NCBI GenBank assembly: GCA_036677365.1
Contig: JAVBWN010000035.1
Location: forward strand, 1 to 43,674
Length of the DNA: 43,674 nucleotides
Origin: Acholeplasma sp.
GTDB taxonomy: Bacteria; Bacillota_I; Bacilli_A; Acholeplasmatales; UBA5453
Direction of reading: 5' to 3'
Below, one piece after another: positions 3,965-43,674 of this stretch (positions within the stretch are counted from its first letter, which is position 1; every line of letters begins with the position of its first letter). Position numbers and translations under genes: made by a program. The notes beneath the pieces are model-generated. The model searched no databases, was not told the DNA's origin, and was given only the letters and a program-made list of their open reading frames with translations.

Positions 3965-4038
3965 TGGCAGGGCTAGCTGGATTTGAACCAACGATGACGG
4001 AGTCAAAGTCCGTTGCCTTACCGCTTGGCGATAGCCCT
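3965..4038 (-). tRNA. tRNA-Gln (TTG)
   Basis: Reverse complement AGGGCTA...ACGGA-CTTTGAC-TCCGT...GTTCAAATC...TAGCCCT-G-CCA; full cloverleaf with encoded CCA. Confidence 0.96.
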
Positions 4039-4066
4039 ATCTATTGAATTTCACATAAAACATGCA

Positions 4067-4143
4067 TGGGGCGGCTGAAGGGAGTTGAACCCTCCAATGC
4101 CGGAGCCACAATCCGGTGCGTTAACCGCTTCGCCACAACCGCC
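4067..4143 (-). tRNA. tRNA-His (GTG)
   Basis: Reverse complement G-GCGGTTG...CCGGA-TTGTGGC-TCCGG...CAGCCGC-C-CCA, with G-1 and C73 identity elements. Confidence 0.96.
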
Positions 4144-5186: not shown

Positions 5187-5261
5187 AGGGACATGGTGTC
5201 AACGGTAGCACAGCGGTCTCCAAAACCGTTAGTACGGGTTCGAATCCTGTTGTCCCTGCCA
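5187..5261 (+). tRNA. tRNA-Trp (CCA)
   Basis: AGGGACA...GCGGT-CTCCAAA-ACCGT...GTTCGAATC...TGTCCCT-G-CCA; promoter-like TTGAAG-17-TATATT at 5136-5164. Confidence 0.96.
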
Positions 5262-5900: not shown

Positions 5901-6626
5901 TTATATAATGAGTTTCGCAGCTTCTTTATCGATAAATACTTCGACATCCGGGTGATTTTGTAAAATCGAAGCAGGCAATTGTTCCGTGATGGGACCAGAA
6001 AGCATTTGCTTGATGGCTTCGGCTTTGTTTGCACCACTGGCCATCAAAATGATTTTTTTCGCGTCCATGATGTTTTTGATGCCCATGGTAATCGCTTCTT
6101 TAGGTACTTCATCTAAAGCGTTAAAGAATCTTGCATTATCCTTGCGTGTTTTTTCAGCCAAAGTCACAATGTGTGTTTTCACATCAAATGGTGTCCCTGG
6201 TTCGTTGAAACCAATATGACCGTTACTGCCAATCCCTAAAATTTGTATGTCTGGGATGTGTAGACTTAAGACGTCGTTATAAGCTTCACATGCGATATTC
6301 AAATCGTCTGATTCACCATCGGGTAAGTGTACTTGATTGAAATCGATGTTGATGTGGTCAAACAAGTTTTTCTTCATGAACGAGAAATACGATTCAGGGT
6401 GTGTTTTACCAATCTTAACATATTCATCGAGATTGACTGAAGTGACCTTACTATAATCGGTGTGGTTGGTTTGATGGTCTTTAATGAGCAGTTCATACAC
6501 ACCAACGGGTGTGGACCCTGTGGCTAAACCTAAGGTGATGGTAGGGTTATCTTTGATGGCTTCAATCAATATGTCGGAAACAGCCTTGTCTAGTTCTTTT
6601 TTGTTTCTGTAAATATGAATATTCAT
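5901..6626 (-). CDS. nagB: Glucosamine-6-phosphate deaminase
   Basis: LGLATGSTP, NLDEY, LGIGSNGHIGFNEPG, AITMG and PASILQ.H motifs. Start at ATG 6626 with GGAGG RBS. Confidence 0.96.
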   Translation of the reverse strand: MNIHIYRNKKELDKAVSDILIEAIKDNPTITLGLATGSTPVGVYELLIKDHQTNHTDYSKVTSVNLDEYVKIGKTHPESYFSFMKKNLFDHINIDFNQVHLPDGESDDLNIACEAYNDVLSLHIPDIQILGIGSNGHIGFNEPGTPFDVKTHIVTLAEKTRKDNARFFNALDEVPKEAITMGIKNIMDAKKIILMASGANKAEAIKQMLSGPITEQLPASILQNHPDVEVFIDKEAAKLII

Positions 6627-6627
6627 G

Positions 6628-7755
6628 TTATCCTCCGAAAACAACCTGGCCTTTAACCAAGGTTGTTTCAATGTTGTAGTTGTCATCTAATATGACTAGG
6701 TTTGCGAGTTTTCCTACTTCAATTGAACCCATCACGTGATCGAGTTTTAACTGAATGGCGGCTTTGGTAGAAGACATATAAGCGGCTTCATATAAAGAAA
6801 GACCTAAATCATTGAGGGCATATTTAAAACCATCCATGAATCTCAAGATTGAACCAGCCAATGTGCCATCGTTCAAACGGGCTTCACCCTGTGCGATGTG
6901 TACAGTTTGACCACCCAATTCGGATATACCATCGGGCATGTTTTTAGCACGCATCGAGTCTGTGATCAGTGTGATGTTTTGGTAACCCTTATTCTTTAAG
7001 AGCAATTTCGCAGCCGGTATAGACACATGGACTTTATCCAAAATCAATTCCGCTGTCAATTCATCGTGTAATAAAGCCGCACCCACGACCCCAATATCTC
7101 GGTGGTGTAGGGGTGTCATGGCATTGTACGTATGGGTGGTTGAGGTTGCTCCAAGTTTAATGGCTTCTAAAATGGTGCCATAATTCGCTTTGGTATGGGC
7201 GATGGAGGCCACAATGCCTTTGGTTCTTAAATGCGAAATCAACGCCATTGAACCAGGTATTTCAGGGGCTAAAGATACTTTTTTAATGATTTCCCCACTG
7301 GCTTTATTGAAACCATCAAATAGCGTAATATCCGAAGGGATGATACATGATTTTGGTTGTGCCCCTGCGGCGCCTTCATTGATGAAAGGACCTTCTAAAT
7401 GGACACCTAAAAGCATCGCGCCATTGGGGTTTTGATTTTGATAATAATGACCAATCGAAGTCAAAGCATTTTCGATATTGAGTTGTGTCTGTGTCATGGT
7501 GGTTGCTAAAAAAGCGGTGGTGCCCTCTTTGACTAAAGCCAGCGCGAGTTGTTCAATGGCATAAGTGCTCGCATCCATCGCGTCGACATTGCTTGCACCA
7601 TGAATATGTAAATCAATAAAACCAGGGATAACATAACGTTTTGTAATGTTGTTTGGTTCTGGCTTGATGTTTATTTTTGAAATTTTACCGTCTTCGATGA
7701 TCAAATCACCATAAACCACACGGTCTTTTAATACGATGTGTACATTGTTAAGCAT
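6628..7755 (-). CDS. nagA: N-acetylglucosamine-6-phosphate deacetylase
   Basis: PGFIDLHIHG, GTTAFLAT, HLEGPFI, LAPE, THTYNAM, LITDSM, LAGS motifs. Start at ATG 7755 with GGAGG RBS. Confidence 0.96.
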   Translation of the reverse strand: MLNNVHIVLKDRVVYGDLIIEDGKISKINIKPEPNNITKRYVIPGFIDLHIHGASNVDAMDASTYAIEQLALALVKEGTTAFLATTMTQTQLNIENALTSIGHYYQNQNPNGAMLLGVHLEGPFINEGAAGAQPKSCIIPSDITLFDGFNKASGEIIKKVSLAPEIPGSMALISHLRTKGIVASIAHTKANYGTILEAIKLGATSTTHTYNAMTPLHHRDIGVVGAALLHDELTAELILDKVHVSIPAAKLLLKNKGYQNITLITDSMRAKNMPDGISELGGQTVHIAQGEARLNDGTLAGSILRFMDGFKYALNDLGLSLYEAAYMSSTKAAIQLKLDHVMGSIEVGKLANLVILDDNYNIETTLVKGQVVFGG

Positions 7756-7957
7756 AGCAATCCTCCACAACATTTGATGTGATACAAGTCCATGATATCA
7801 TGGAAAGAATGAAAAAAAACAAAGTCGGTCGATTTTGAAAAAAAGGACATTGAAAAACACGGCTATTTTACTTTTTTGGATAAATTTTTCGAGGTGATGA
7901 CTTTATGATGACTTATATACCCCAACTTGTTACAATAAGTGTATCGGTGGTGATTCC

Positions 7958-9280
7958 ATGGACTTTCAAACATTCATAACCTTATTAGACATGCCTGACC
8001 CTGTAGTCAGTACAATCCAATCGTTACATCAACAACACCAAAATGCTTATCAGGATGACGTTTTAGGTTTACAATCCATGCGTACTGCAGAAGCCACGCA
8101 GAAGCGTTTACGTGAAACATTCAAATCCAGCGATGGCATGATGATTCTCTATTTGTTTTTAAGGGCGGCTTTGGATAATTATCCCCAATATCAATCCATG
8201 AAAATATCGGATGATGTGTTCATTGAAACTTATAAAGCATTACCAAGATTCATTAAGGAATTTCATAAGCAATCGGGTCAGTATGCTTTTGAGCGAGATT
8301 GGTGGGCGTATCGTCAAACGGCGATGAATATCTTTAGAATTGGTGAGCTCGAATATGAGATGACCATTCAAGAAAATACGAAAGTTTTATCGATTCATAT
8401 CCCTTCAGACGCCAACCTCACACATACCCATCTAGAAACCTCATTTAGACTGGCGAGATTGTTTTTTAATCGACGTTATCAGGCTTATGAAAATGCCCGA
8501 TTCTATTGTCATACATGGTTATTAAGCCCGGCTTTAAAAGGCTTATTGGAGCCATCTTCCAAGATACTTGCATTCCAAAGTTATTTTGATATTACCGCGA
8601 CTTTTTTAGAAAATAACTCCTATCTATATTGGGTATTTCAAACCAGAGATACGGATGTATCCAAGCTTGAAACCAAGACCTCACTACAAAAACGAATCAA
8701 ATCATTCGTTGAAGCTGGAGGGAAGATTGGCACAGCCTCCGGGTATGTCAATTTTGATCATTTCCAATACCGTTTTGAATCTCCCAATTTATCACATGAA
8801 GCTTTGGTTATGGACTATAAACGAGAGATGTTAGAAAACCAAGACCCATTAAATGGTACAGGTGGATTGGGTAGATATGATGCCTATGAAGACTGGCTAA
8901 AACACCTCGACGACAAAAAACATTTACGTATGGAAGGCGACACCATTCCAACCTCAGAGTATTTATTACTGGATCAACAAAACACGTTGTATGCCATGGT
9001 CAATGTCCGTCATTTTTTGGATGATGAACTCAGACAAACCTATGGTCATGCGGGGGCATCGGTTCGACCGAAATACCGTAAACAAGGCTATGCTAAATTG
9101 GCTTTATCTATGGCTCTAGAGGTCATCCAATCTTTAGGCGAGGAAGCTGCCATGATTTCATGTAGCGTATTCAATTTGGGTTCAAGAAAAACCATTGAAG
9201 CTTGTGGTGGTATCTTCGAACACATCGTGATGGACCACGAAGACAACGTAGAAATGCGTATTTATTGGATTTATATATAA
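7958..9280 (+). CDS. Two-domain acyltransferase: N-terminal acyltransferase-like domain (DUF5596/GNAT_C type) fused to a C-terminal GNAT
   Basis: N-part FRIGELEYE, LSIHIPS, CHTWLLSP.L..LL...S.I..FQ, TSLQ; C-part GHAGASVRPKYRKQGYA, similar to the 5346-5867 protein. Confidence 0.7.
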   Translation: MDFQTFITLLDMPDPVVSTIQSLHQQHQNAYQDDVLGLQSMRTAEATQKRLRETFKSSDGMMILYLFLRAALDNYPQYQSMKISDDVFIETYKALPRFIKEFHKQSGQYAFERDWWAYRQTAMNIFRIGELEYEMTIQENTKVLSIHIPSDANLTHTHLETSFRLARLFFNRRYQAYENARFYCHTWLLSPALKGLLEPSSKILAFQSYFDITATFLENNSYLYWVFQTRDTDVSKLETKTSLQKRIKSFVEAGGKIGTASGYVNFDHFQYRFESPNLSHEALVMDYKREMLENQDPLNGTGGLGRYDAYEDWLKHLDDKKHLRMEGDTIPTSEYLLLDQQNTLYAMVNVRHFLDDELRQTYGHAGASVRPKYRKQGYAKLALSMALEVIQSLGEEAAMISCSVFNLGSRKTIEACGGIFEHIVMDHEDNVEMRIYWIYI

Positions 9281-9303
9281 AGCACGTCACTGTGCTTTTT
9301 TTT
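9279..9303 (+). terminator. Intrinsic terminator
   Basis: AAAGCAC-gtcact-GTGCTTT plus T run. Confidence 0.65.
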
Positions 9304-9407
9304 CGCCTTTATTATTATAAATAATGCTTGTTTCGGTTTGTGAATAACTTTTTCGTAAGCCCTTTGATACAATGAAGCCGTAAAATGCAATACTAAGGGA
9401 GAAAAAT

Positions 9408-10037
9408 ATGAAGAAATATATCCTCGTGTTCTTAATTGTATTGGGGACAATAGCCCTATCGGGTTGTGTTGAAAAAACACCCGCTTGTAACGACAATGAA
9501 TCACGCATTGATGGCGTTTGCGTGGTCAATCGTACCGAGTTTGAAACAAAACTATACAATACAGCTAACCTAGATAATGTTACCATCGAATGGGTGGTTA
9601 CACTCGGTGAAGAAACCAGTACTTCAATATTGAAGTTTGATGGTCAAAAATCCTCAGTTCAGTCGGGCAATCATACAGAGTTTTATGAAACCGATGGGAC
9701 CACCACATACCGTTATTTTCAAACAGAAAATGGGTACGAAAGAGAAACTGTCCAGTTGAGTGGTTCTACTCAACCCTCGTTTTATGAAAATTTAAAAGAA
9801 ACAGACTTTACACTGATGGAAAATCGATATCTACTAAACTATGGTACATACAACGATATCCTAGGTTTCGTTAAAAGCTACGATTCGGAAGCAACTTTTT
9901 CAAACTTTGAATTGTCTGTAGAAACCTATATCACGCAAATCAAGTTTGACATCCTTGTAGGCGATCTGGTATATAAGCTTACATTGAATTATTCAAATCA
10001 TAATCAAACGACTGTAGAGGTACCAACCTATGCGTAA
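9408..10037 (+). CDS. Hypothetical lipoprotein
   Basis: MKK + hydrophobic stretch + LSGC lipobox; stop overlaps the next gene. Confidence 0.8.
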   Translation: MKKYILVFLIVLGTIALSGCVEKTPACNDNESRIDGVCVVNRTEFETKLYNTANLDNVTIEWVVTLGEETSTSILKFDGQKSSVQSGNHTEFYETDGTTTYRYFQTENGYERETVQLSGSTQPSFYENLKETDFTLMENRYLLNYGTYNDILGFVKSYDSEATFSNFELSVETYITQIKFDILVGDLVYKLTLNYSNHNQTTVEVPTYA

Positions 10038-11616
10038 TCCATTTTGGAAGAAATCTTTACTGTTACTCATCATCACTTTATTCACATTCACTCTGGTTCA
10101 ACCATATCGTGTGAATGCCGCTTTAAGAATATATCAAAAATCTCGTGACACCCAATATGTAGAAGGCGTTAGACACATCAAAATCGCCGCAGAAATCGAT
10201 TTTAATGGCACGATTTCAGAACAAGTCATTAACTATGCCGGAATCAATATTAAGAATAACCCGCACATCAAAGTGGTGGTTGCAGATAACTATAAAGTGA
10301 ATGGCTTTGGTATGTCTACAGTCCCACAACAAATATGGAACATCCATCAAAAATTTCCCAATGTTCAAGTCATTGCCGGTGTGAATGGCGACTTCTATAA
10401 CATGTCTAATGGAATCCCTGTGTCTCCTTATGTGAGAAACTATGAAGTCATCTTCCAAGGCACCACATGGGCAAGAACATTGGTTGGATTCAAAGACAAT
10501 GGCGATGTTGTCTTTGGGAAACCGACGTTTAGCGGTTATGAAGTCATGGTCTTTGATCAAGACGGGTCGCTTAAACTCAACCCAATCAAAGTGAATGCTT
10601 TCAATCGTTTACCAGCCAATGATAATGAAGTCACAGCCTTCTTCACAGAACATGCCAGTGAAATCAATTCTGGCGCACAAAAACTGATTGTACATGGGTT
10701 AGACATTAAATCGGATGGTTCCGGTTCAAGGTATTTTTCTAAAGGTACATTTGGCAGTATCACCAATGAAGTCATCTCAGTTCAAGAAAACCAATTTATA
10801 CTGATGGGTTCGAAGTTATTCGCTGAAGGTTTCATCGAATCCACCGATACGATTGTGGTTCAGCAACGCATGTCAGGTATCTTTGAAGGTGTCAGGGACG
10901 CGATTGGTGGTTGGGAAATTCTTGTAAAAAATGGTGTACCAGAAACCACATTTACCCAAGGGGCTTCTTATCAATTTAGAGCACCAAGAACTGCTGTCGG
11001 GATTAAAAATGATGGTACCGTGTTCTTTGTTACGGTCGATGGTAGAAACATGCCGCTGGGTATGGATGGTGTCACAGCCTATGAAATGGCTGAAATCATG
11101 GCTTATTTTGAAGCCGATCACGCCATCAATCTAGATGGTGGGGGTTCTACAACCATGGCGATTTTAAATGGTGAAGACTATGATATTGTCAACACACCTT
11201 CAGATGGCAACCTCAGATCGAATGCGAACGGTGTATTCTTTGTTAAAGGCAATCTACCACAAACATTGCCACCAGTACCGTATCCAGACAACCGTGAAAT
11301 ACTCAATACACCAAGCAATTTATTCATACAAAACTCAGGCGTATTGACATTCAATGCTGTAGATCACGCAACAAGATATGAAGTATGGATCAATGGGACA
11401 ACCAAAATCGATACGACCACTAATAGTGTAACTTTAAACTTACCAATAGGCACCTACGATATTCAAGTACGCGCTTATGGCAACCACGACACACATAAAC
11501 AATCCTTATATTCAGAAGCATTGACATTTACCGTGTACTCCAATGACATGTTGAATTTCATCGATTTCATCCGAGCATACACACAAACACAGCACAACAA
11601 TAACCAATCCAACTAA
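10030..11616 (+). CDS. Secreted phosphodiester glycosidase (NAGPA/DUF2233 family) with C-terminal Fn3-like domain
   Basis: Signal peptide; NGDFY, PRTAVG, VTVDGR, AINLDGGGSTTM and N.PSDG..R motifs. Confidence 0.88.
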   Translation: MRNPFWKKSLLLLIITLFTFTLVQPYRVNAALRIYQKSRDTQYVEGVRHIKIAAEIDFNGTISEQVINYAGINIKNNPHIKVVVADNYKVNGFGMSTVPQQIWNIHQKFPNVQVIAGVNGDFYNMSNGIPVSPYVRNYEVIFQGTTWARTLVGFKDNGDVVFGKPTFSGYEVMVFDQDGSLKLNPIKVNAFNRLPANDNEVTAFFTEHASEINSGAQKLIVHGLDIKSDGSGSRYFSKGTFGSITNEVISVQENQFILMGSKLFAEGFIESTDTIVVQQRMSGIFEGVRDAIGGWEILVKNGVPETTFTQGASYQFRAPRTAVGIKNDGTVFFVTVDGRNMPLGMDGVTAYEMAEIMAYFEADHAINLDGGGSTTMAILNGEDYDIVNTPSDGNLRSNANGVFFVKGNLPQTLPPVPYPDNREILNTPSNLFIQNSGVLTFNAVDHATRYEVWINGTTKIDTTTNSVTLNLPIGTYDIQVRAYGNHDTHKQSLYSEALTFTVYSNDMLNFIDFIRAYTQTQHNNNQSN

Positions 11617-11635
11617 CCCTTGGATTGGTTTCTTT
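11602..11635 (+). terminator. Hairpin / likely terminator after the NAGPA gene
   Basis: AACCAATCCAA-ctaaccc-TTGGATTGGTT followed by TCTTT. Confidence 0.55.
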
Positions 11636-11659
11636 ACAAAGGCCTTTTAGGAGAACACT

Positions 11660-12451
11660 ATGAAAATAATTACCTGCATCAAACAAGTCCCAGCATCCTC
11701 GAATGTTCAAGTAGACCCCATCACTGGGGTTTTAATCAGAGATTCACAGAACGTTAAAATGAATCCATTCGACCTGTTTGGCTTAGAAACTGCTTTTCAA
11801 ATCAAATCACGTATCGAAAACACAGCCATCCACGCTGTAACGATGGGGCCTCAATCGGCCACACAAGTACTTAAAGAAGCTTTATATATGGGTGCAGATG
11901 ACGCTACGTTACTCACTGACCGCAAATTTGCCGGAGCGGATGTGCTTGCAACCTCGTATACCATCAGTCAGTTGGTAAAACACATGAAGGATTATGACTT
12001 GGTTATTTGTGGCAAACAAACCACCGATGGCGATACAGCTCAAGTGGGACCTGAAATGGCTGAATTTTTAGGCATTCCTCATGTACCTTATGTTAAAGAA
12101 CTCATCGAAGTAACTTCAAAATACATCATCGTTAGAAGCGCTTATGATCAATACGATGAGATTGTAAAAGTTGAATTACCATGTCTTTTAACCGTAGAAA
12201 AAGATGCAAATACGCCTAGATTACCATCCTATAGAAGACAGCTTTTATTCGATAACTACAAGATAAACTATGTTACTTTCAAAGATTTAGAAGACCAAAA
12301 CGAAAATCATTACGGTTTGAATGGGTCTCCAACCCAAGTAGACGAGATTTTTTCACCGGACAAATCGATGCATTCCACCCGATTCGAAGGTGACCCACAA
12401 ACGCTGTCTAATCAATTAGTAGAGATACTAAAAGATAAGCGTTTCTTATAG
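11660..12451 (+). CDS. etfB: Electron transfer flavoprotein beta subunit (LctB-like)
   Basis: CIKQVP, NPFD, TMGP, DRKFAGADVLATS, GKQTTDGDTAQVGP, GLNGSPT.V motifs. Confidence 0.93.
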   Translation: MKIITCIKQVPASSNVQVDPITGVLIRDSQNVKMNPFDLFGLETAFQIKSRIENTAIHAVTMGPQSATQVLKEALYMGADDATLLTDRKFAGADVLATSYTISQLVKHMKDYDLVICGKQTTDGDTAQVGPEMAEFLGIPHVPYVKELIEVTSKYIIVRSAYDQYDEIVKVELPCLLTVEKDANTPRLPSYRRQLLFDNYKINYVTFKDLEDQNENHYGLNGSPTQVDEIFSPDKSMHSTRFEGDPQTLSNQLVEILKDKRFL

Positions 12452-12460
12452 GAGGGACCC

Positions 12461-13663
12461 ATGGGCTATATTAAAGTAGATAACACCAAAGTCACAAAAG
12501 AAATTGCAGACCAGCTCAAACAAGTGTGTCCGTTCAATGCGTTCGAGTATGTCGATGAGTATTTATCCATCAACGCGAGCTGTCGTGTATGCAAGCTATG
12601 CGTTAAAAAAGGACCTAAAGGGGTTTGTGAATTCATCGACGATTCGCGACCACAGATCGATAAATCCAAATACAAAGGCATCGCCGTTTTTATGGAACAA
12701 CACAACAATCTTTGTCACCCTGTCGGATTTGAATTGTTAGGTAAAGCCAAAGAAATCGCTCTAAAAACGAATGAAAAAGTATACGCGATTGTGATTGGTA
12801 GCGATACACAAGCGATGGTATCGGAGTGTCTTCAATATGGGGTAGATGATGTTTTTGTCTATCAAGACAGCCTATACCGTGATTTTAATGTCGAAAGATA
12901 CACCAATGTCATGGAGAGTTTCTATAAGAAATACCAAAACAACGTCATTTTATTTGGATCAACCCCACTGGGTAGAAGTTTCGCACCACGTGTCGCGGCA
13001 CGCCTAAAAACAGGACTAACAGCGGACTGTACGATGTTAGATATCACAGAAGAAGGCGATTTATTACAAATTCGTCCTGCCTTTGGTGGAAACATCATGG
13101 CGAAAATCAACACCCCAAATAACAGACCACAGCTCGCCACCATCCGCTATAAAATGTTTAATAAACCTGCGATTGTAAAGCCTTTTGGACAAGTCCACCA
13201 CGAATCCGTGGAAGATATCGAAAAACATTCTAGAATCGAACTCATCGAATCGGTACATAAACCTCAAGCCAAAGACATCTCTGAATCTGAAATCATCATC
13301 GCGCTGGGGAGAGGGATTAAAAAACAATCGGATTTGGCATTGATTGAACCACTTAGAGCACAATTGGGTGCCGATTTAGCTTGTACAAGACCACTCATCG
13401 AAAATGGTTGGTTCGATGCGAGACAGCAAATTGGATTATCGGGTAGAACGGTTAAACCAAAACTATTGATCAACATTGGTATCAGTGGTTCAGTCCATTT
13501 CATCGAAGGGATGAAGGAAGCTGAAACGATCATCACCATCAACCAAGACCCACAATGTAAGCTTTTCAATTATTCACACTACGCCATTTGTGGGGATTTA
13601 TACCAAGTATTGCCGAAATTAAACGAACTATTAGAACAATTGGGGGTCACACAACATGTTTAA
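12461..13663 (+). CDS. etfA: Electron transfer flavoprotein alpha subunit with N-terminal ferredoxin-like extension (LctC-like)
   Basis: N-terminal CPFNA...CRVCKLC...C; TGLTADCT, RPAFGGN, GRG, QIGLSGRTVKP, GISGSVHF motifs. Confidence 0.92.
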   Translation: MGYIKVDNTKVTKEIADQLKQVCPFNAFEYVDEYLSINASCRVCKLCVKKGPKGVCEFIDDSRPQIDKSKYKGIAVFMEQHNNLCHPVGFELLGKAKEIALKTNEKVYAIVIGSDTQAMVSECLQYGVDDVFVYQDSLYRDFNVERYTNVMESFYKKYQNNVILFGSTPLGRSFAPRVAARLKTGLTADCTMLDITEEGDLLQIRPAFGGNIMAKINTPNNRPQLATIRYKMFNKPAIVKPFGQVHHESVEDIEKHSRIELIESVHKPQAKDISESEIIIALGRGIKKQSDLALIEPLRAQLGADLACTRPLIENGWFDARQQIGLSGRTVKPKLLINIGISGSVHFIEGMKEAETIITINQDPQCKLFNYSHYAICGDLYQVLPKLNELLEQLGVTQHV

Positions 13664-15047
13664 AAGACTAGATCCAAAAGACATTCAAATCTTAACAGAT
13701 ATCGTTGGTCATGAATCCATCACTGTGGGTGGTAACATAGACCATGAATACGCACACGACGAACTCAAAAACGTTTCAGGTGTCCCTGAAGCACATGTGT
13801 TTGTGACAGATAAATATCAAATATCCCAAATCATGGCCTACGCCAATCAACATAACATTCCCGTCACCGTACGCGGGGCTGGGACTGGCTTAGTAGGGTC
13901 ATGTGTCCCTGTCCATGGTGGGATTTTGCTCAATACATCCAAAATGAACAAAATCATCGATTTAGACACCATCAATTTAACATTAACGGTTGAACCAGGG
14001 GTATTGTTGTTGGATATTTACGAGGCTGTAGAAAAAGAGAATTTATTCTATGCCCCAGACCCAGGTGAAAAAACAGCCACCATCGGTGGAAATATCTCAA
14101 CCAATGCTGGTGGGATGCGCGCGATTAAATATGGCGTCACCCGTGACTGGGTACGCGGACTTGAAGTGGTTTTACCGAATGGTGAAATCATTCAAACCGG
14201 CGGGAAGATGGTTAAAAACTCTACTGGTTATGGCCTAAAAGATTTGATCATTGGTTCCGAAGGGACCTTAGGCATCATCGTTTCAGCGACGTTAAAACTC
14301 ATTTCTAAACCAAAGAAAACCATTTCATTATTGGTTCCATTTGAAAACCGTGAAGCAGCGATTAAAGCCGCACCAGTATTGATAAAAAACCATGTCACAC
14401 CAACAGCGGTAGAATTCTTAGAAAAACAATCCTTACAGTATTCTGAAACATTCTTAGGCAAGAAAATACCACACAATAACTTTGAAGCCTATTTATTGTT
14501 ATCTTACGATGGCAATACCGATGAAGCCGTCGACCACGACATCAAAATCGCATCCAATATGTGTTTGGATTTAGGGGCGATTGATGTGTTCTTAGTCGAT
14601 ACCACCGAAAGGGCGAAAGCGGTATGGACAGTGCGTGGTGGATTCTTAGAAGCCATCAAATCATCGACCGATGAAATTGATGAAATCGATGTGTGCTTAC
14701 CACGTTCAGCCGTCAGTGGCTATTTGGCCTATGCGAGAGAGATTTCAGAACAACTCAACATTCGTATCCCTTATTTTGGCCACATTGGCGATGGTAACCT
14801 GCATATTTATTTTTGTAAAGATAACTTAGAAGTCACTCAGTGGCATGATGTGGTCGATAAAGGTTTTAAATTGATGTATGATAAAGCCTTTGAAATGGGT
14901 GGTGTGGTTTCAGGTGAACACGGCATCGGCTATGCGAAAAAACGTTATATGGTGGATTTGCTTGGAGACACCCAAATCCAATTGATGAAAGGCATCAAAC
15001 AGGTATTTGATCCTAAAGGCATCTTAAACCCAAGCAAAGTCATTTAG
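13656..15047 (+). CDS. lctD: FAD-linked oxidoreductase of the GlcD/LctD family, probably Etf-dependent D-lactate dehydrogenase
   Basis: RGAGTGLVG, PDPGEKTATIGGNISTNAGGMRAIKYGVTRD, GSEGTLG, GH.GDGNLH, SGEHGIG; etfB-etfA-dehydrogenase order as in Acetobacterium woodii lctBCD. Confidence 0.8.
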   Translation: MFKRLDPKDIQILTDIVGHESITVGGNIDHEYAHDELKNVSGVPEAHVFVTDKYQISQIMAYANQHNIPVTVRGAGTGLVGSCVPVHGGILLNTSKMNKIIDLDTINLTLTVEPGVLLLDIYEAVEKENLFYAPDPGEKTATIGGNISTNAGGMRAIKYGVTRDWVRGLEVVLPNGEIIQTGGKMVKNSTGYGLKDLIIGSEGTLGIIVSATLKLISKPKKTISLLVPFENREAAIKAAPVLIKNHVTPTAVEFLEKQSLQYSETFLGKKIPHNNFEAYLLLSYDGNTDEAVDHDIKIASNMCLDLGAIDVFLVDTTERAKAVWTVRGGFLEAIKSSTDEIDEIDVCLPRSAVSGYLAYAREISEQLNIRIPYFGHIGDGNLHIYFCKDNLEVTQWHDVVDKGFKLMYDKAFEMGGVVSGEHGIGYAKKRYMVDLLGDTQIQLMKGIKQVFDPKGILNPSKVI

Positions 15048-15097
15048 TCACTTATCAAGAATGATTGTGATTTACTTAGAACCTCATCATTAAAATG

Positions 15098-15136
15098 ATG
15101 TAAAGCCCTTACATTTAGACACTTCTATGTTATAAT
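15098..15136 (+). promoter_or_regulatory. Promoter of the RpiR regulator with overlapping palindromic operator
   Basis: ATGTAA-agccc-TTACAT (15098-15114) over the -35 position; extended -10 TG-t-TATAAT (15128-15136). Confidence 0.55.
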
Positions 15137-15187
15137 TACTATGGTGAATTATACGATTAGATGTTTTTGAATGGGGGTTTTTATTTT

Positions 15188-16033
15188 ATGAGTATCATGC
15201 TTAATATGCTGAAAAACAAAGAAGAACTCAGTATGGCCGAAAAGGTCGTACTCGATTATTTGATTGAACATAAAGAAGACTTAAAGGATTTTGGTATTGA
15301 AAAGATTGCTGAAGCGGCGTATACCTCCCCAGCCTCTGTCGTTAGAATGTGTAAAAAACTGGGTTATCGTGGGTTTAAGGATTTTAAGATTGATTTTATT
15401 TTAGCCAATGCAAAAGTAGAAATCCCTGAACACACCGAATATTCCGACGTCATTTTAACCAAAAAATTCAATACAGGTAAGGTTGCGATTGAAAACGACA
15501 TCCGCGTGTTAGAAGATACGATGAAACTTTATAACGAAGAAACGTATGAAAAGGCCGCTGAAATCATCATGAGCGCTCGTAAGATTCTCATCTTTGGTAA
15601 AGGCTCATCCTACATTGTTTGTAAAGATTTAGAAATGAAACTTCGCCGAATCAATAAGTTTTGTATCGCTCAAGGCGAGTCCCATGACCAGTTGGTCGAT
15701 GCGTCATTCATCAACCAAAAAGATGTGATTATATTCATCAGTAATTCAGGTAAGACCAAAGAAATCATCTCTTCAGCATTGTTGGCGAAAGAAAACAAAG
15801 CGAAGATCATTGTCATTACAAAATTAGGTTCATCGATCCTGGCGGATTTAGGTGATATCGTCATTTATACCTCTTCACTTGAAGGGGAGTTTAGAAGTGC
15901 TGCGATGACCTCGCGTATTTCTCAATTGGCGGTTGTGGATGCGTTATTCTCACATTGTGCCTATACGGATATTGACCGTTCTGTCAAAATGCTTGAAACC
16001 ACGTATCAAACATTTAAACAATTTAAACGATAA
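15188..16033 (+). CDS. MurR/RpiR family transcriptional regulator (HTH + SIS)
   Basis: SPASVVRMCKKLGYRGFKDFK HTH; FG.G.S, ISNSGKT, SRISQL.VVD.LF. Start moved to ATG 15188 after GGGGG. Confidence 0.92.
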   Translation: MSIMLNMLKNKEELSMAEKVVLDYLIEHKEDLKDFGIEKIAEAAYTSPASVVRMCKKLGYRGFKDFKIDFILANAKVEIPEHTEYSDVILTKKFNTGKVAIENDIRVLEDTMKLYNEETYEKAAEIIMSARKILIFGKGSSYIVCKDLEMKLRRINKFCIAQGESHDQLVDASFINQKDVIIFISNSGKTKEIISSALLAKENKAKIIVITKLGSSILADLGDIVIYTSSLEGEFRSAAMTSRISQLAVVDALFSHCAYTDIDRSVKMLETTYQTFKQFKR

Positions 16034-16040
16034 AAAACGA

Positions 16041-16068
16041 AGAGGTATGCTGCTAGCATACTTTTTTT
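16041..16068 (+). terminator. Terminator after the RpiR gene
   Basis: GTATGCT-gct-AGCATAC followed by T7. Confidence 0.7.
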
Positions 16069-16116
16069 GTCGCCTGGGTGATTTTTTCAATTTTGGAAAA
16101 AACAACCAAAAGACAA

Positions 16117-16177: not shown

Positions 16178-17317
16178 ATGAAACTTTCAATTGGCTTAAT
16201 GAGTGGAACCTCATTGGATGGCATCGATTTGGTTCTATGTGAAATAAATGGGTCCTTTATGGATACCGAAGTGAAAGTCATTGCCCATCAATCCTATGAT
16301 TTAGACCCGGGATTGGTTTTAAAAATACAGGATTCAATTCAGTTGAAAACGAGCGCAAGAGACTTGACCAGTCTCAATTTTGAATTAGCCATTGCCTTTT
16401 CAAAGGCCATCAATACATTCATTGAAACCTTAGGGTTAGACCATAAAAACATCGATTTTATCGCTTCACATGGCCAAACCATCTACCATATACCCTTCGC
16501 AACTAAAGACCATGTTCCAAGCACATTACAGTTGGGGTCTGGGTCAGTGATTGCACAACTTACAGGCATCACGACGGTATCCAATTTTAGAGTTGCGGAT
16601 ATGGCTGTGGGGGGACAAGGGGCACCCTTGGTACCCTATGCTGAATTCGTATTATTCTCACAAAAAGAGAAGACCATCGCGATGCATAATTTAGGGGGGA
16701 TTTCGAATTTAACCCTCATGCCTAAAGGTCAGGACATCGATCAAGTGATTGCTTTTGATACAGGTCCAGCCAATATGATGATCGATTACGCGATGAAAAA
16801 ATTATTTCATCAACCTTACGATGACCAAGGCTACTACGCTTCAAGAGGTCAATTAATCCAACCATTATATGAATCATTGATGGCCCATCCGTATCTAAAA
16901 TTGGATTACCCAAAGTCCACAGGTAGAGAGATGTTTGGTGATGATTATACGCAAACATGCTTATCACCATACCCAAACGAAAAACCGGAAGACATCATCC
17001 ACACCTTATCGATGTTTACCGTAGATAGCATCGTATTAAGCTATCGAAAGTTACTAGAAAAACACACGATCGATGAAATTATCTTTTCAGGTGGCGGTGC
17101 ATTTAACCCGTTTTTGATTGAAAATATACGAAAAGGTTTGTACCCAATACAAGTATCCACACTTGAAGACCATGGTCTCGATTCAAAATGTAAAGAAGCC
17201 CTCGCTTTTGTCATTTTAGGGAACGAGACACTCCATCGTCATTTTAATCACATCAAAAGTGCCACTGGCGCGACCCGCTTAGTTGTACTGGGTGACATCA
17301 GTCCTGTCATCCGTTAG
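16178..17317 (+). CDS. anmK: Anhydro-N-acetylmuramic acid kinase
   Basis: IGLMSGTSLDGID, SHGQTIYH, STLQLG, FR.ADMA.GGQGAPLVP, NLGGISN, FDTGPAN, PKSTGRE.F, KEALAF motifs. Confidence 0.96.
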   Translation: MKLSIGLMSGTSLDGIDLVLCEINGSFMDTEVKVIAHQSYDLDPGLVLKIQDSIQLKTSARDLTSLNFELAIAFSKAINTFIETLGLDHKNIDFIASHGQTIYHIPFATKDHVPSTLQLGSGSVIAQLTGITTVSNFRVADMAVGGQGAPLVPYAEFVLFSQKEKTIAMHNLGGISNLTLMPKGQDIDQVIAFDTGPANMMIDYAMKKLFHQPYDDQGYYASRGQLIQPLYESLMAHPYLKLDYPKSTGREMFGDDYTQTCLSPYPNEKPEDIIHTLSMFTVDSIVLSYRKLLEKHTIDEIIFSGGGAFNPFLIENIRKGLYPIQVSTLEDHGLDSKCKEALAFVILGNETLHRHFNHIKSATGATRLVVLGDISPVIR

Positions 17318-42244: not shown

Positions 42245-42883
42245 ATGTTCATAGAAAAACCCTTTTTCCAAAAAATCAATCAAATCAGTGACTGGGTATT
42301 GCGTTTGGTGATCATCAACACGTTGGTCATTCTGACGATTTTACCCATCATCACACTCTTTTTGGGGCTATCTACCGGATACAACACCTTAAGAGACCTT
42401 TGGAGAAAAAAGGAAAAAGGGTTATTCAGAACGTATGTTAAACACTTAAAGTACCGTATTTTTCACAAACTTTTGTTGGGATTGGTGCTGGGTGTGATTA
42501 TTTTGGTGGGCTATCTCAACATGACTTATTATGTTGAACTCATCGAAACCACACCAACCTTATTCTACCAAGCAGGCTATTACATCACATTGTTCTTTGT
42601 GGTGATGATGCTTTCTGTATCATTGTATTTGTTACCCATCGTCTATGCTAAGCCTCTTTTGGGCATCAAAGCATCCATCAAATTGGCTTTTTATGTGGCG
42701 GGTAAATATATCATAAGAACAGTATTCTTGTTACTCACACCAGCATTATTGTTATTCTTGTTGCTCACCTCATTCACTTCCATGATATTTGTCTTACTTG
42801 GTGTCAGTGGTTGGTTGATGGTGATGGTTTTAATCACCGATGTGGTGGTGGATTTGGTAGAGGAGATGAATCGTCGTGATTAA
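42245..42883 (+). CDS. YesL/DUF624-like membrane protein
   Basis: D...L...N.L.IL..LPIIT start, 4-5 TM segments; typical position after sugar ABC permeases. Confidence 0.68.
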   Translation: MFIEKPFFQKINQISDWVLRLVIINTLVILTILPIITLFLGLSTGYNTLRDLWRKKEKGLFRTYVKHLKYRIFHKLLLGLVLGVIILVGYLNMTYYVELIETTPTLFYQAGYYITLFFVVMMLSVSLYLLPIVYAKPLLGIKASIKLAFYVAGKYIIRTVFLLLTPALLLFLLLTSFTSMIFVLLGVSGWLMVMVLITDVVVDLVEEMNRRD

Positions 42884-43674
42884 ATTAGGCATTGAGCAAA
42901 TCGGTCTATATCGATCGCTATTTGAAGGTAAACGTGTGGGTTTAATCACAAACCCTACAGGTGTCAATCAACAGTTCAAATCGACGATTGACATTCTCCA
43001 TGAAGTATCCACGTTGGTAGCGCTATTTTCACCAGAACACGGGGTTAGAGGTAACGTTCAAGCAGGCGTTAAATTAGACCCGTATATCGACAAAGAAACC
43101 AACGCGATGGTGTATTCACTCTATGGTGAAACCCGAAAACCAACCGAAGCGATGATGTCTGATATCGATATACTTTGTTTCGATATTCAAGATGTGGGTG
43201 CGCGATTTTACACCTATATCTACACCATGGCATTCGCATTAGAAGCATGCAAGACCTATGGCAAGAAAATGGTTGTCTTCGACAGACCGAATCCCCTTGG
43301 TGGGGTAGTTGTGGAAGGTAATCTTTTAGATTTAAACTTTAGAAGTTTTGTCGGGTACTATTCCATCCCACAACGCTATGGTTTAACCATTGGCGAACTG
43401 GCGAATTACTTTAATGATTTAGGTGATATTCACGCCGACCTCACGGTCATCTCCATGGCGGGTTATCACAGAAGTATGCATTTTAAAGACACCCAGGTGC
43501 CCTTTGTATTACCATCACCGAACATCCCGACGCCTGAAACCATTTATGCGTATATGGCGACTTGTTATTTTGAAGGAACCAACCTATCCGAAGGCAGAGG
43601 TACGACCAAACCCTTTCAAATATTTGGTGCCCCATGGTTTAATAGCAAAGCGGTTCTAGAAGCTTTAAAACCAT
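42876..43674 (+). CDS. namZ: Exo-beta-N-acetylmuramidase NamZ (DUF1343/YbbC), truncated by window end
   Basis: Manual translation from GTG 42876: MIKLGIEQ...GKRVGLITNPTG...ALFSPEHGVRG...SLYGETRKP...FDIQDVGARFYTYIYTM...DRPNPLGG...SPNIP...EGTNLSEGRGTTKPF. No signal peptide. Not in the ORF track. Confidence 0.93.
   Translation, partial: MIKLGIEQIGLYRSLFEGKRVGLITNPTGVNQQFKSTIDILHEVSTLVALFSPEHGVRGNVQAGVKLDPYIDKETNAMVYSLYGETRKPTEAMMSDIDILCFDIQDVGARFYTYIYTMAFALEACKTYGKKMVVFDRPNPLGGVVVEGNLLDLNFRSFVGYYSIPQRYGLTIGELANYFNDLGDIHADLTVISMAGYHRSMHFKDTQVPFVLPSPNIPTPETIYAYMATCYFEGTNLSEGRGTTKPFQIFGAPWFNSKAVLEALKP

Follow-up and report, generated by a model that had tools for sequence, protein, structure and literature searches.

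A predicted electron-confurcating lactate dehydrogenase linked to N-acetylmuramic acid catabolism genes in Acholeplasmatales

INTRODUCTION

What becomes of the lactyl group of N-acetylmuramic acid (MurNAc) when the bacterium that consumes this sugar is a fermenter? The question is raised by a contig of an Acholeplasma species (JAVBWN010000035.1, here C35), whose entire 43,674 bases constitute the window analysed in this study. Three genes of this contig, lctB, lctC and lctD (11660-15047), are predicted to encode a lactate dehydrogenase/electron-transferring flavoprotein (Etf) complex, and they reside in a locus for the scavenging of peptidoglycan. The etherase MurQ splits MurNAc-6-phosphate into N-acetylglucosamine-6-phosphate (GlcNAc-6-P) and D-lactate, and Corynebacterium glutamicum engineered for MurNAc use accumulates lactate, as described in the accessible excerpts of two reports (PMC3022706, PMC6165865). 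Disposal of this D-lactate has to date been assigned to respiratory Dld enzymes, which depend on quinone. For a fermenter that lacks a respiratory chain, oxidation of D-lactate by NAD+ is endergonic. The complex of Acetobacterium woodii offsets this endergonic step by co-oxidizing reduced ferredoxin, with activities of 12.3 U/mg in the forward direction and 1.2 U/mg in reverse, according to the available part of PMC9232219.

A sequence-only reading of this DNA had proposed that the complex oxidizes wall-derived D-lactate to pyruvate, or else works in the opposite direction as an electron sink. We evaluated the window together with the remainder of its genome (1.97 Mb in 37 contigs, rated 99.86% complete) and with a broad set of relatives. 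The reading that we favour, with a probability of roughly 0.7, is that LctBCD carries out the intracellular oxidation of MurQ-derived D-lactate to pyruvate, which would allow the sugar and lactyl halves of MurNAc alike to be fermented. It draws on the orthology and intact motifs of the three proteins, the conserved linkage of their genes to MurNAc catabolism, the lack of permease and wall-synthesis genes, and RNA-library contigs that extend from orf209, the first gene of the lct transcription unit, to lctD.

RESULTS AND DISCUSSION

LctBCD matches the lactate dehydrogenase/Etf complex of A. woodii

Three open reading frames (ORFs) are located exactly where the sequence-only reading had placed an etfB, an etfA and a GlcD-family dehydrogenase gene, all on the plus strand. 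The lctB gene (11660-12451) encodes the small Etf subunit EtfB (263 amino acids, Pfam ETF), and lctC (12461-13663) encodes EtfA (400 amino acids, ETF and ETF_alpha) with an N-terminal extension of ~70 residues. The product of lctD (13656-15047) is a flavin adenine dinucleotide (FAD)- and metal-dependent dehydrogenase of the VAO/GlcD superfamily (463 amino acids, FAD_binding_4 and FAD-oxidase_C). The genes follow the order etfB, etfA, ldh, with a gap of 9 nucleotides (nt) between lctB and lctC and an overlap of 8 nt between lctC and lctD.

Each protein was compared with all solved structures in the PDB. The best matches were the three chains of 7QH2, the A. woodii Ldh-EtfAB complex, whose motifs and key residues are named in the accessible text of PMC9232219. 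LctB matched 7QH2_B (312 bits, E 1.9e-92; runner-up 197 bits), LctC matched 7QH2_A (424 bits, E 3.3e-126; runner-up 234 bits) and LctD matched 7QH2_C (575 bits, E 8.3e-172). The runner-up for LctD, at 229 bits, was a glycolate oxidase, and mitochondrial D-lactate dehydrogenase and D-2-hydroxyglutarate dehydrogenase were among its further matches. Given these E-values, the match scores lie far beyond chance.

Every motif that we tested is kept, which bears out the resemblance to A. woodii in gene order and motifs that had been proposed from the letters of the window. The Cys-rich extension of LctC, likewise recognized earlier, carries C23, C41, C44 and C47 in the exact spacing C-x17-C-x2-C-x2-C, which is the signature of a one-cluster [4Fe-4S] ferredoxin in the portion of PMC9232219 that is available. 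The bifurcating-FAD segment of LctB, DGDTAQVGP at residue 123, is identical to that of the A. woodii chain. In LctD, 10/10 substrate and metal residues are identical to those of A. woodii (L80, R328, L332, E344, D346, H377, H384, Y386, E422 and H423 in A. woodii numbering). Among these ten are the catalytic His and the ligands of the His/His/Glu metal site, and all ten are invariant in a 10-sequence alignment (A1). Conservation extends to Glu37, Glu139 and four gate residues. The lctD gene is single-copy in the genome, and the sole other Etf pair adjoins an acyl-CoA dehydrogenase gene on contig C14. Judged by protein sequence, lctBCD is thus predicted to encode the orthologue of the electron-confurcating lactate dehydrogenase/Etf complex of A. 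woodii.

An assignment of LctD as the glycolate oxidase subunit GlcD was considered and rejected. TIGR00387 (GlcD) is the top NCBIfam match of LctD, but its score of 377.9 bits falls below the equivalog cut-off of 567.9, which argues that LctD is not this subunit. The score against NF008408 was 249.7 bits (cut-off 897), and no GlcE or GlcF partner gene was found beside lctD in a Pfam analysis of the window ORFs. We take the LctD enzyme family to be D-specific, a property that fits the presence of a LarA racemase gene beside canonical lct operons.

MurNAc pathway genes and the joint between two contigs

The sequence-only reading had described lctBCD as embedded in a MurNAc locus, and this description holds for nagA, nagB, anmK and namZ, all of which are in the window, but not for murQ, which is on contig C28. 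Directly downstream of lctBCD and on the same strand, as had been read, are a gene for an RpiR/MurR-family regulator (15161-16033; Pfam HTH_6 and SIS) and anmK, which encodes anhydro-MurNAc kinase (16178-17317; NF007142, 475.4 bits, cut-off 435). The regulator scores below the equivalog cut-offs (NF008458, 158 versus 378 bits; MurR model, 100.6 versus 408). On the minus strand to the left, nagB (5901-6686; TIGR00502, 274.8 bits, cut-off 236.9) and nagA (6628-7773; TIGR00221, 310 bits, cut-off 225.65) would convert GlcNAc-6-P to fructose-6-phosphate, forming the sugar branch downstream of MurQ. The exo-muramidase gene namZ (42876-43673, plus strand) is truncated by the end of the contig.

Although the window carries no copy of murQ, the gene was found on C28 (TIGR00274, 380.9 bits, cut-off 302) in an operon composed of nagZ (GH3), a BadF/BadG kinase gene (murK) and murQ (locus L002). 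With AnmK, NagA and NagB above their cut-offs in the window and MurQ above its cut-off on C28, the MurQ pathway set is complete. An open frame cut by the end of C28 corresponds to NamZ_C profile positions 84-152, and the end of the window corresponds to positions 2-42. Because the two ends hold complementary parts of NamZ_C, C35 and C28 most likely abut with a gap of ~120 nt, which would place murQ ~33 kb downstream of lctD. The two genes share a contig and a strand in 11 relatives, with murQ downstream by 32-39 kb, and the order namZ-nagZ-murK-murQ is seen directly in one genome (G156). The peptidoglycan-scavenging locus that holds lctBCD spans roughly 45 kb.

Two further features of C28 were recorded. 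A methylglyoxal-synthase-like (MGS domain) gene (7941-8339) is 3 kb from murQ, and D-lactate can also form inside the cell through the detoxification of methylglyoxal. An IS605 OrfB-like fragment (3-467) is present at the opposite contig end.

A host without wall-synthesis genes or a lactate permease

Searches of the 99.86%-complete genome for MraY, MurG and FtsW/RodA found no gene for any of them. Because these genes are absent, the host is predicted to make no wall of its own, and its MurNAc must, on this gene content, derive from the walls of foreign bacteria by scavenging rather than recycling. Related loci are labelled Acholeplasmataceae, Tenericutes or Izemoplasmatales.

The genome also lacks an LctP-family lactate permease, which argues that D-lactate arises inside the cell, and it lacks an NAD-dependent L-lactate dehydrogenase (TIGR01771). 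Consistent with the earlier remark that no permease or racemase gene is adjacent, neither domain occurs among the 31 window ORFs scanned, and no GntR/FCD regulator, LctP or LarA gene lies beside lctBCD in the window. A candidate racemase was rejected: the only protein of this kind is a weak Lar_N match on contig C12 (56 bits) that has no LarA_C domain and is unlinked to lctBCD. Its gene adjoins a short-chain dehydrogenase/reductase gene and an energy-coupling factor transporter gene.

Ferredoxin enzymes are encoded elsewhere in the genome, namely RnfC, an [FeFe] hydrogenase of the HydABC type and a four-subunit 2-oxoacid:ferredoxin oxidoreductase, and a plausible source of reduced ferredoxin for LctBCD may be sought among them. 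No nifJ-type pyruvate:ferredoxin oxidoreductase was found in the genome.

The link between lctD and anmK or murQ is conserved through four gene orders

We surveyed 251 evenly drawn genomes of the order, among them the window's own (G000), for orthologues of LctD (E ≤ 1e-120) and for AnmK (E ≤ 1e-40). LctD is present in 39 genomes and AnmK in 41; both occur in 36/251, LctD only in three (G010, G017 and G020), AnmK only in five and neither in 207. In 27 of the 36 genomes that have both, lctD and anmK are ≤3 kb apart on the same strand, and these cases extend over 8 genera and 3 families. The two genes are on different contigs in another eight, six of which have a contig edge at lctD or rpiR (G002, G054, G027, G015, G208 and G018), and in the remaining genome (G156) they are 30 kb apart in one locus. 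Among 61 relatives, LctD and MurQ occur together in 22, LctD only in one (G010), MurQ only in two and neither in 36. Since related genomes are not independent, these counts describe a pattern and do not constitute a statistical test.

Four architectures were encountered. In architecture A, which is the order of the window and of families f1 and f3, the genes are arranged as orf209-NAGPA-lctBCD-rpiR-anmK-...-murQ. Architecture B (G156 and G064) reads rpiR-anmK-...-namZ-nagZ-murK-murQ-orf209-NAGPA-lctBCD. Architecture C is a compact namZ-nagZ(or mupG)-murK-anmK-murQ-lctBCD operon, found in G029 and in seven loci from a scan of a species collection; lctB is preceded by an alpha/beta hydrolase gene in 7/8 of them. 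In architecture D (G017), the order is murQ-GNAT-lctBCD. The persistence of the link through these rearrangements tells more than the co-occurrence counts.

From the species collection, LctD loci were taken as the best 80 of at least 593 matches. MurNAc genes are ≤10 kb from lctD in 17 of these best 80 loci. A GntR/FCD regulator gene is present in 13, LctP in 11 and LarA in 8; all of these are non-MurNAc loci, and no MurNAc-type locus among the best 80 has any of the three. A quick IQ-TREE phylogeny of 103 LctD rows, rooted on three paralogues (38-40%), contains a 40-row clade that comprises subclades of 28 rows (support 100) and 12 rows (support 98) and that is considered further below. Two compact murQ-lctBCD operons (L043 and L052) are on contigs labelled Bacteroidales and Prevotella; their LctD proteins group with Acholeplasmataceae sequences and those of Bacilli metagenome-assembled genomes (MAGs), and their placement could reflect mis-binning or gene transfer.

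The sequence-only reading had pointed to co-occurrence of lctBCD with anmK/murQ as a check on its proposal, and to unconserved adjacency as evidence against it. Co-occurrence was observed, as counted above. Adjacency is kept across genera and families, but almost entirely within one clade and with no shared operator. Comparative data likewise favour the proposed supply of wall-derived D-lactate through MurQ, with the amendment that the peptidoglycan would be foreign.

In genus g13, the locus (L021 = G046, L023 = G031; ~10050-12900) has the order NAGPA-lctD-rpiR-anmK, from which lctB and lctC are cleanly absent. LctD of g13 keeps its active-site residues and has a long branch in the tree. A genome related to g13 (G044) has lost lctD too, and G058 is another relative without LctD. 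Thus, lctD is retained in the locus even without Etf, and confurcation is not universal. The presence of lctD alone may point to a second electron acceptor for LctD.

Transcription units and regulatory elements

Gene spacing and hairpins suggest three separate units in the window, comprising orf209-NAGPA-lctB-lctC-lctD, rpiR, and anmK onward. The first unit begins with orf209 (9408-10037, plus strand), a predicted lipoprotein gene whose signal ends in LSGC and whose product has no Pfam or NCBIfam match. It overlaps by 8 nt the gene for a predicted secreted NAGPA-domain phosphodiester glycosidase (10030-11616, plus strand; PF09992, 123 bits; signal-like N-terminus), and is syntenic with NAGPA-lctBCD in 12 of the 26 loci examined, window counted. 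All genes from orf209 to lctD are joined by overlaps or short gaps, including one of 43 nt between NAGPA and lctB. An inverted repeat with an 11-bp stem (11602-11630, plus strand) spans the NAGPA stop codon 30 nt before lctB, and is kept in the two closest relatives (L004 and L005). Upstream of orf209, a terminator-like hairpin with a T-run (9279-9298) follows an acyltransferase-like gene (7958-9280, plus strand; Pfam NAT_N/GNAT_C/GNAT). A promoter-like site precedes rpiR (15108-15136), and a terminator-like hairpin follows it (16045-16061).

Four public metatranscriptome runs from two studies (X15-X18) hold near-identical sequence. In X15, one RNA-library contig of 4821 nt corresponds to 9398-14218 and extends from just before orf209 into lctD, and in X16 a contig (10018-11956) bridges NAGPA and lctB. 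The X15 and X16 contigs thus bridge the hairpin at 11602-11630, whereas those of X17 and X18 break there. Contig starts at 9398, 9402 and 9413 in three runs, and stops at ~15083-15126, give a weak hint of transcript ends. Depth in X15 is 0-2.4 at the acyltransferase-like gene versus 8-11 downstream; positions 7800-8173 have zero depth in 4/4 runs, and anmK onward is covered in 4/4. This uneven cover along the locus argues for real RNA, and orf209, NAGPA and lctBCD appear to form one transcription unit.

Three candidates for a shared regulatory signal were rejected. A palindrome-like RpiR operator with the consensus TGTAAGCGCTTACA (≤4 mismatches) has 6 intergenic sites versus 1.1 expected, and five of these six are before locus operons, including orf209, rpiR and anmK. 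However, the consensus was derived from the same sites on which it was scored, and this circular result was not counted. The element G-A(5-8)-CAACC-W-A occurs between rpiR and anmK in 11/17 loci, once per locus (16096-16113 in the window), and once in L006, just after rpiR at the contig end, but nowhere else in 455 kb. It is likely to be a regulatory site of the anmK operon, and was set aside as evidence for co-regulation of lctBCD because it is missing before the lct genes. An element upstream of lctB, present in 7/21 loci, was set aside because it occurs also in a locus without MurNAc context (L022).

The RpiR protein is the most conserved of the locus. Its identity across genera (L004-L031) is 73-100%, compared with 45-92% for AnmK and 61-95% for LctD. 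Such constraint is strikingly high for a sugar regulator.

A proposed route for the lactyl ether and its alternatives

From these observations we infer the origin and D configuration of the substrate, the direction of the reaction and the supply of ferredoxin, and propose the following pathway. Secreted enzymes (the amidase, GHL10, NamZ and NAGPA types) would free MurNAc and anhydro-MurNAc units, which ABC transporters would take up. AnmK or the BadF/BadG-type kinase would then yield MurNAc-6-phosphate, and MurQ would cut its lactyl ether to give GlcNAc-6-P and D-lactate. GlcNAc-6-P would enter glycolysis via NagA and NagB, and LctBCD would oxidize D-lactate to pyruvate with reduction of 2 NAD+, driven by co-oxidation of reduced ferredoxin. 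The entire MurNAc would thereby be fermentable, and no D-lactate would be left as waste.

A bolder version of this proposal seems to us about evenly balanced. It holds that flavin-based confurcation is a dedicated, co-transcribed foraging step in wall-less Acholeplasmatales, with LctBCD as the 'lactyl-ether branch', that the NAGPA protein may strip polymers linked to MurNAc through phosphodiesters, and that LctD of g13 has a second acceptor. Speculatively, and by analogy with the mammalian 'uncovering enzyme', the targets of the NAGPA protein might be GlcNAc-1-phosphate diesters on MurNAc, through which teichoic acids are attached.

Several observations weigh against the oxidation of MurQ-derived D-lactate by LctBCD. 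Within this genome, lctBCD does not share a transcription unit with anmK or murQ, and murQ itself is ~33 kb away on another contig. No operator common to the lct and anmK units was found, and the G-A(5-8)-CAACC-W-A element is absent before lctB, orf209 and rpiR. The RNA-library contigs are no proof of a single transcript, and could include some DNA carry-over. The genes for the candidate ferredoxin source, 2-oxoacid:ferredoxin oxidoreductase, lie next to one for a Glu/Leu/Phe/Val dehydrogenase, and a pyruvate formate-lyase-like gene and an E1 dehydrogenase gene are present in the genome as well. An EtfA homologue is absent genome-wide in 3/4 of the g13 genomes checked (G046, G031 and G120). 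Both the D-specificity of LctD and the activity of the complex are predictions.

The comparative record also contributes to this side. Five AnmK-bearing genomes lack LctD, showing that the MurNAc pathway can run without it, and G010 has lctBCD although neither AnmK nor MurQ was found there. In the LctD tree, 33/34 MurNAc-context rows fall within the 40-row clade (SH-like approximate likelihood ratio test support 86). Its remaining seven rows consist of three short contigs plus four informative loci (L019, L022/L033, L062 and L085) that have no MurNAc genes nearby. Because the association is nearly confined to one clade, its independent origins would be few, and the history is close to one origin plus retention. 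An independent origin in Clostridia was considered on the basis of L047, an Oscillospiraceae MAG locus outside the clade that carries murQ, phosphotransferase system (PTS) genes, ptsI, nagA, a GntR/UTRA regulator gene and lctBCD. In a sample of 151 Oscillospiraceae genomes, 13 have LctD, and murQ is near lctD in 0/12 besides L047; this candidate was therefore rejected as a singleton.

These same facts provide the case for general use of external lactate, in which the position of lctBCD would merely reflect linkage inherited in one lineage: the single clade, its four loci without MurNAc genes, G010, the unconserved L047 (0/12) and an lctB-upstream element that occurs in 7/21 loci with L022 among them. 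We nonetheless regard this explanation as unlikely, since LctP is missing from the genome, and GntR/FCD, LctP and LarA are in no MurNAc-type locus. Moreover, the linkage has been kept through four gene orders, lctD of g13 still lies between NAGPA and rpiR after loss of lctB and lctC, and RNA-library contigs join lctBCD to orf209 and NAGPA. Somewhat less likely again is the electron sink of the sequence-only reading, in which LctBCD would act during amino-sugar fermentation as a bifurcating, NADH-dependent pyruvate reductase that forms D-lactate and reduced ferredoxin. The A. woodii enzyme does run in reverse (1.2 versus 12.3 U/mg in the accessible part of PMC9232219), no L-lactate dehydrogenase (TIGR01771) was found in the genome, and Rnf and the hydrogenase could consume the reduced ferredoxin. 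However, pyruvate reduction has no more specific a tie to MurNAc genes than to any sugar locus, MurQ already yields D-lactate such that further production would be futile, and the genome search found neither a lactate exporter nor a permease.

A different substrate for LctD, such as glycolate, D-2-hydroxyglutarate or another 2-hydroxyacid, is the least probable of the three alternatives, and we consider it very improbable. The GlcD/VAO superfamily covers several 2-hydroxyacids, the runner-up PDB matches are varied, and TIGR00387 is the top NCBIfam match. Against these points stand its score far under the cut-off, the gap of 575 to 229 bits between the A. woodii LctD of 7QH2 and glycolate oxidase, the ten identical pocket and metal residues that are invariant in A1, and the lack of adjacent GlcE/GlcF genes. 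Oxidation of MurQ-derived D-lactate therefore remains the reading that we prefer.

Other features of the locus

Pfam and NCBIfam matches of the window ORFs mark the contig to the right of ~5.9 kb as the peptidoglycan-scavenging locus. Beyond anmK, its remainder (17283-43673, plus strand; Pfam) encodes two GHL10 proteins, a PBP4B-like peptidase, a 1080-amino-acid Amidase_2 surface protein, two Ig-like surface proteins, a solute-binding protein and four ABC permeases, as well as TPR/NHL, Yip1, DUF5696 and DUF624 proteins. Many relatives have a gene of GH4, an NAD-/Mn-dependent glycosidase family, between anmK and the first GHL10 gene (e.g. L007 12489-13706, L009 6431-7741 and L028 7189-8508); the window does not. 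To the left of the locus, genes for tRNA-Gln and tRNA-His (minus strand) and tRNA-Trp (plus strand) at 3965-4142 and 5187-5261 may be boundary marks.

Comparison with known systems

If the favoured reading is true, a built-in dehydrogenase coupled to ferredoxin and NAD shows how strict fermenters use the whole of MurNAc, and the electron-confurcating lactate dehydrogenase gains a second physiological role besides growth on external lactate. It also supports the view that wall-less relatives of the mollicutes are specialized cell-wall consumers in sludge, sediment and groundwater. We found no report that links LctBCD or an Etf-dependent lactate dehydrogenase to MurQ or peptidoglycan catabolism in the literature searched, which did not extend to subscription-only papers; in the excerpts available, the papers found on LctBCD concern A. 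woodii or lactate consumers.

LctBCD of the window shares with Ldh-EtfAB of A. woodii its gene order, the one-cluster ferredoxin EtfA, the bifurcating-FAD segment and the LctD residues. Canonical lct operons of the A. woodii type have GntR/FCD, LctP and LarA neighbours, whereas lctBCD of the window lacks them and instead forms an apparent unit with the lipoprotein and secreted NAGPA genes in a peptidoglycan-scavenging locus. The lactate, imported in the canonical system, would be made intracellularly by MurQ in this host. What is new is the conserved pathway context of an enzyme that is itself known.

The MurQ pathway of Escherichia coli and Bacillus subtilis has its counterparts here, with AnmK, MurQ, the RpiR/MurR-family regulator, NagA, NagB, NamZ and the GH3 NagZ all present. 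What sets this host apart from both species is a ferredoxin- and NAD-coupled dehydrogenase within the locus, together with a lack of its own peptidoglycan. In E. coli and B. subtilis, D-lactate is left to respiratory enzymes encoded at unlinked positions, which in E. coli means the quinone-dependent Dld. A quinone-dependent Dld is also named for C. glutamicum (PMC6165865). Dld and LctBCD would have the same role, the removal of MurQ-derived D-lactate (for Dld, PMC3022706 and PMC6165865). Both are FAD enzymes of the same broad superfamily; Dld was not among the PDB matches of LctD at E ≤ 1e-20. The two differ in where the electrons go: Dld passes them to quinone and the respiratory chain, whereas LctBCD would pass them to NAD+ with reduced ferredoxin as co-donor, such that respiration is not needed.

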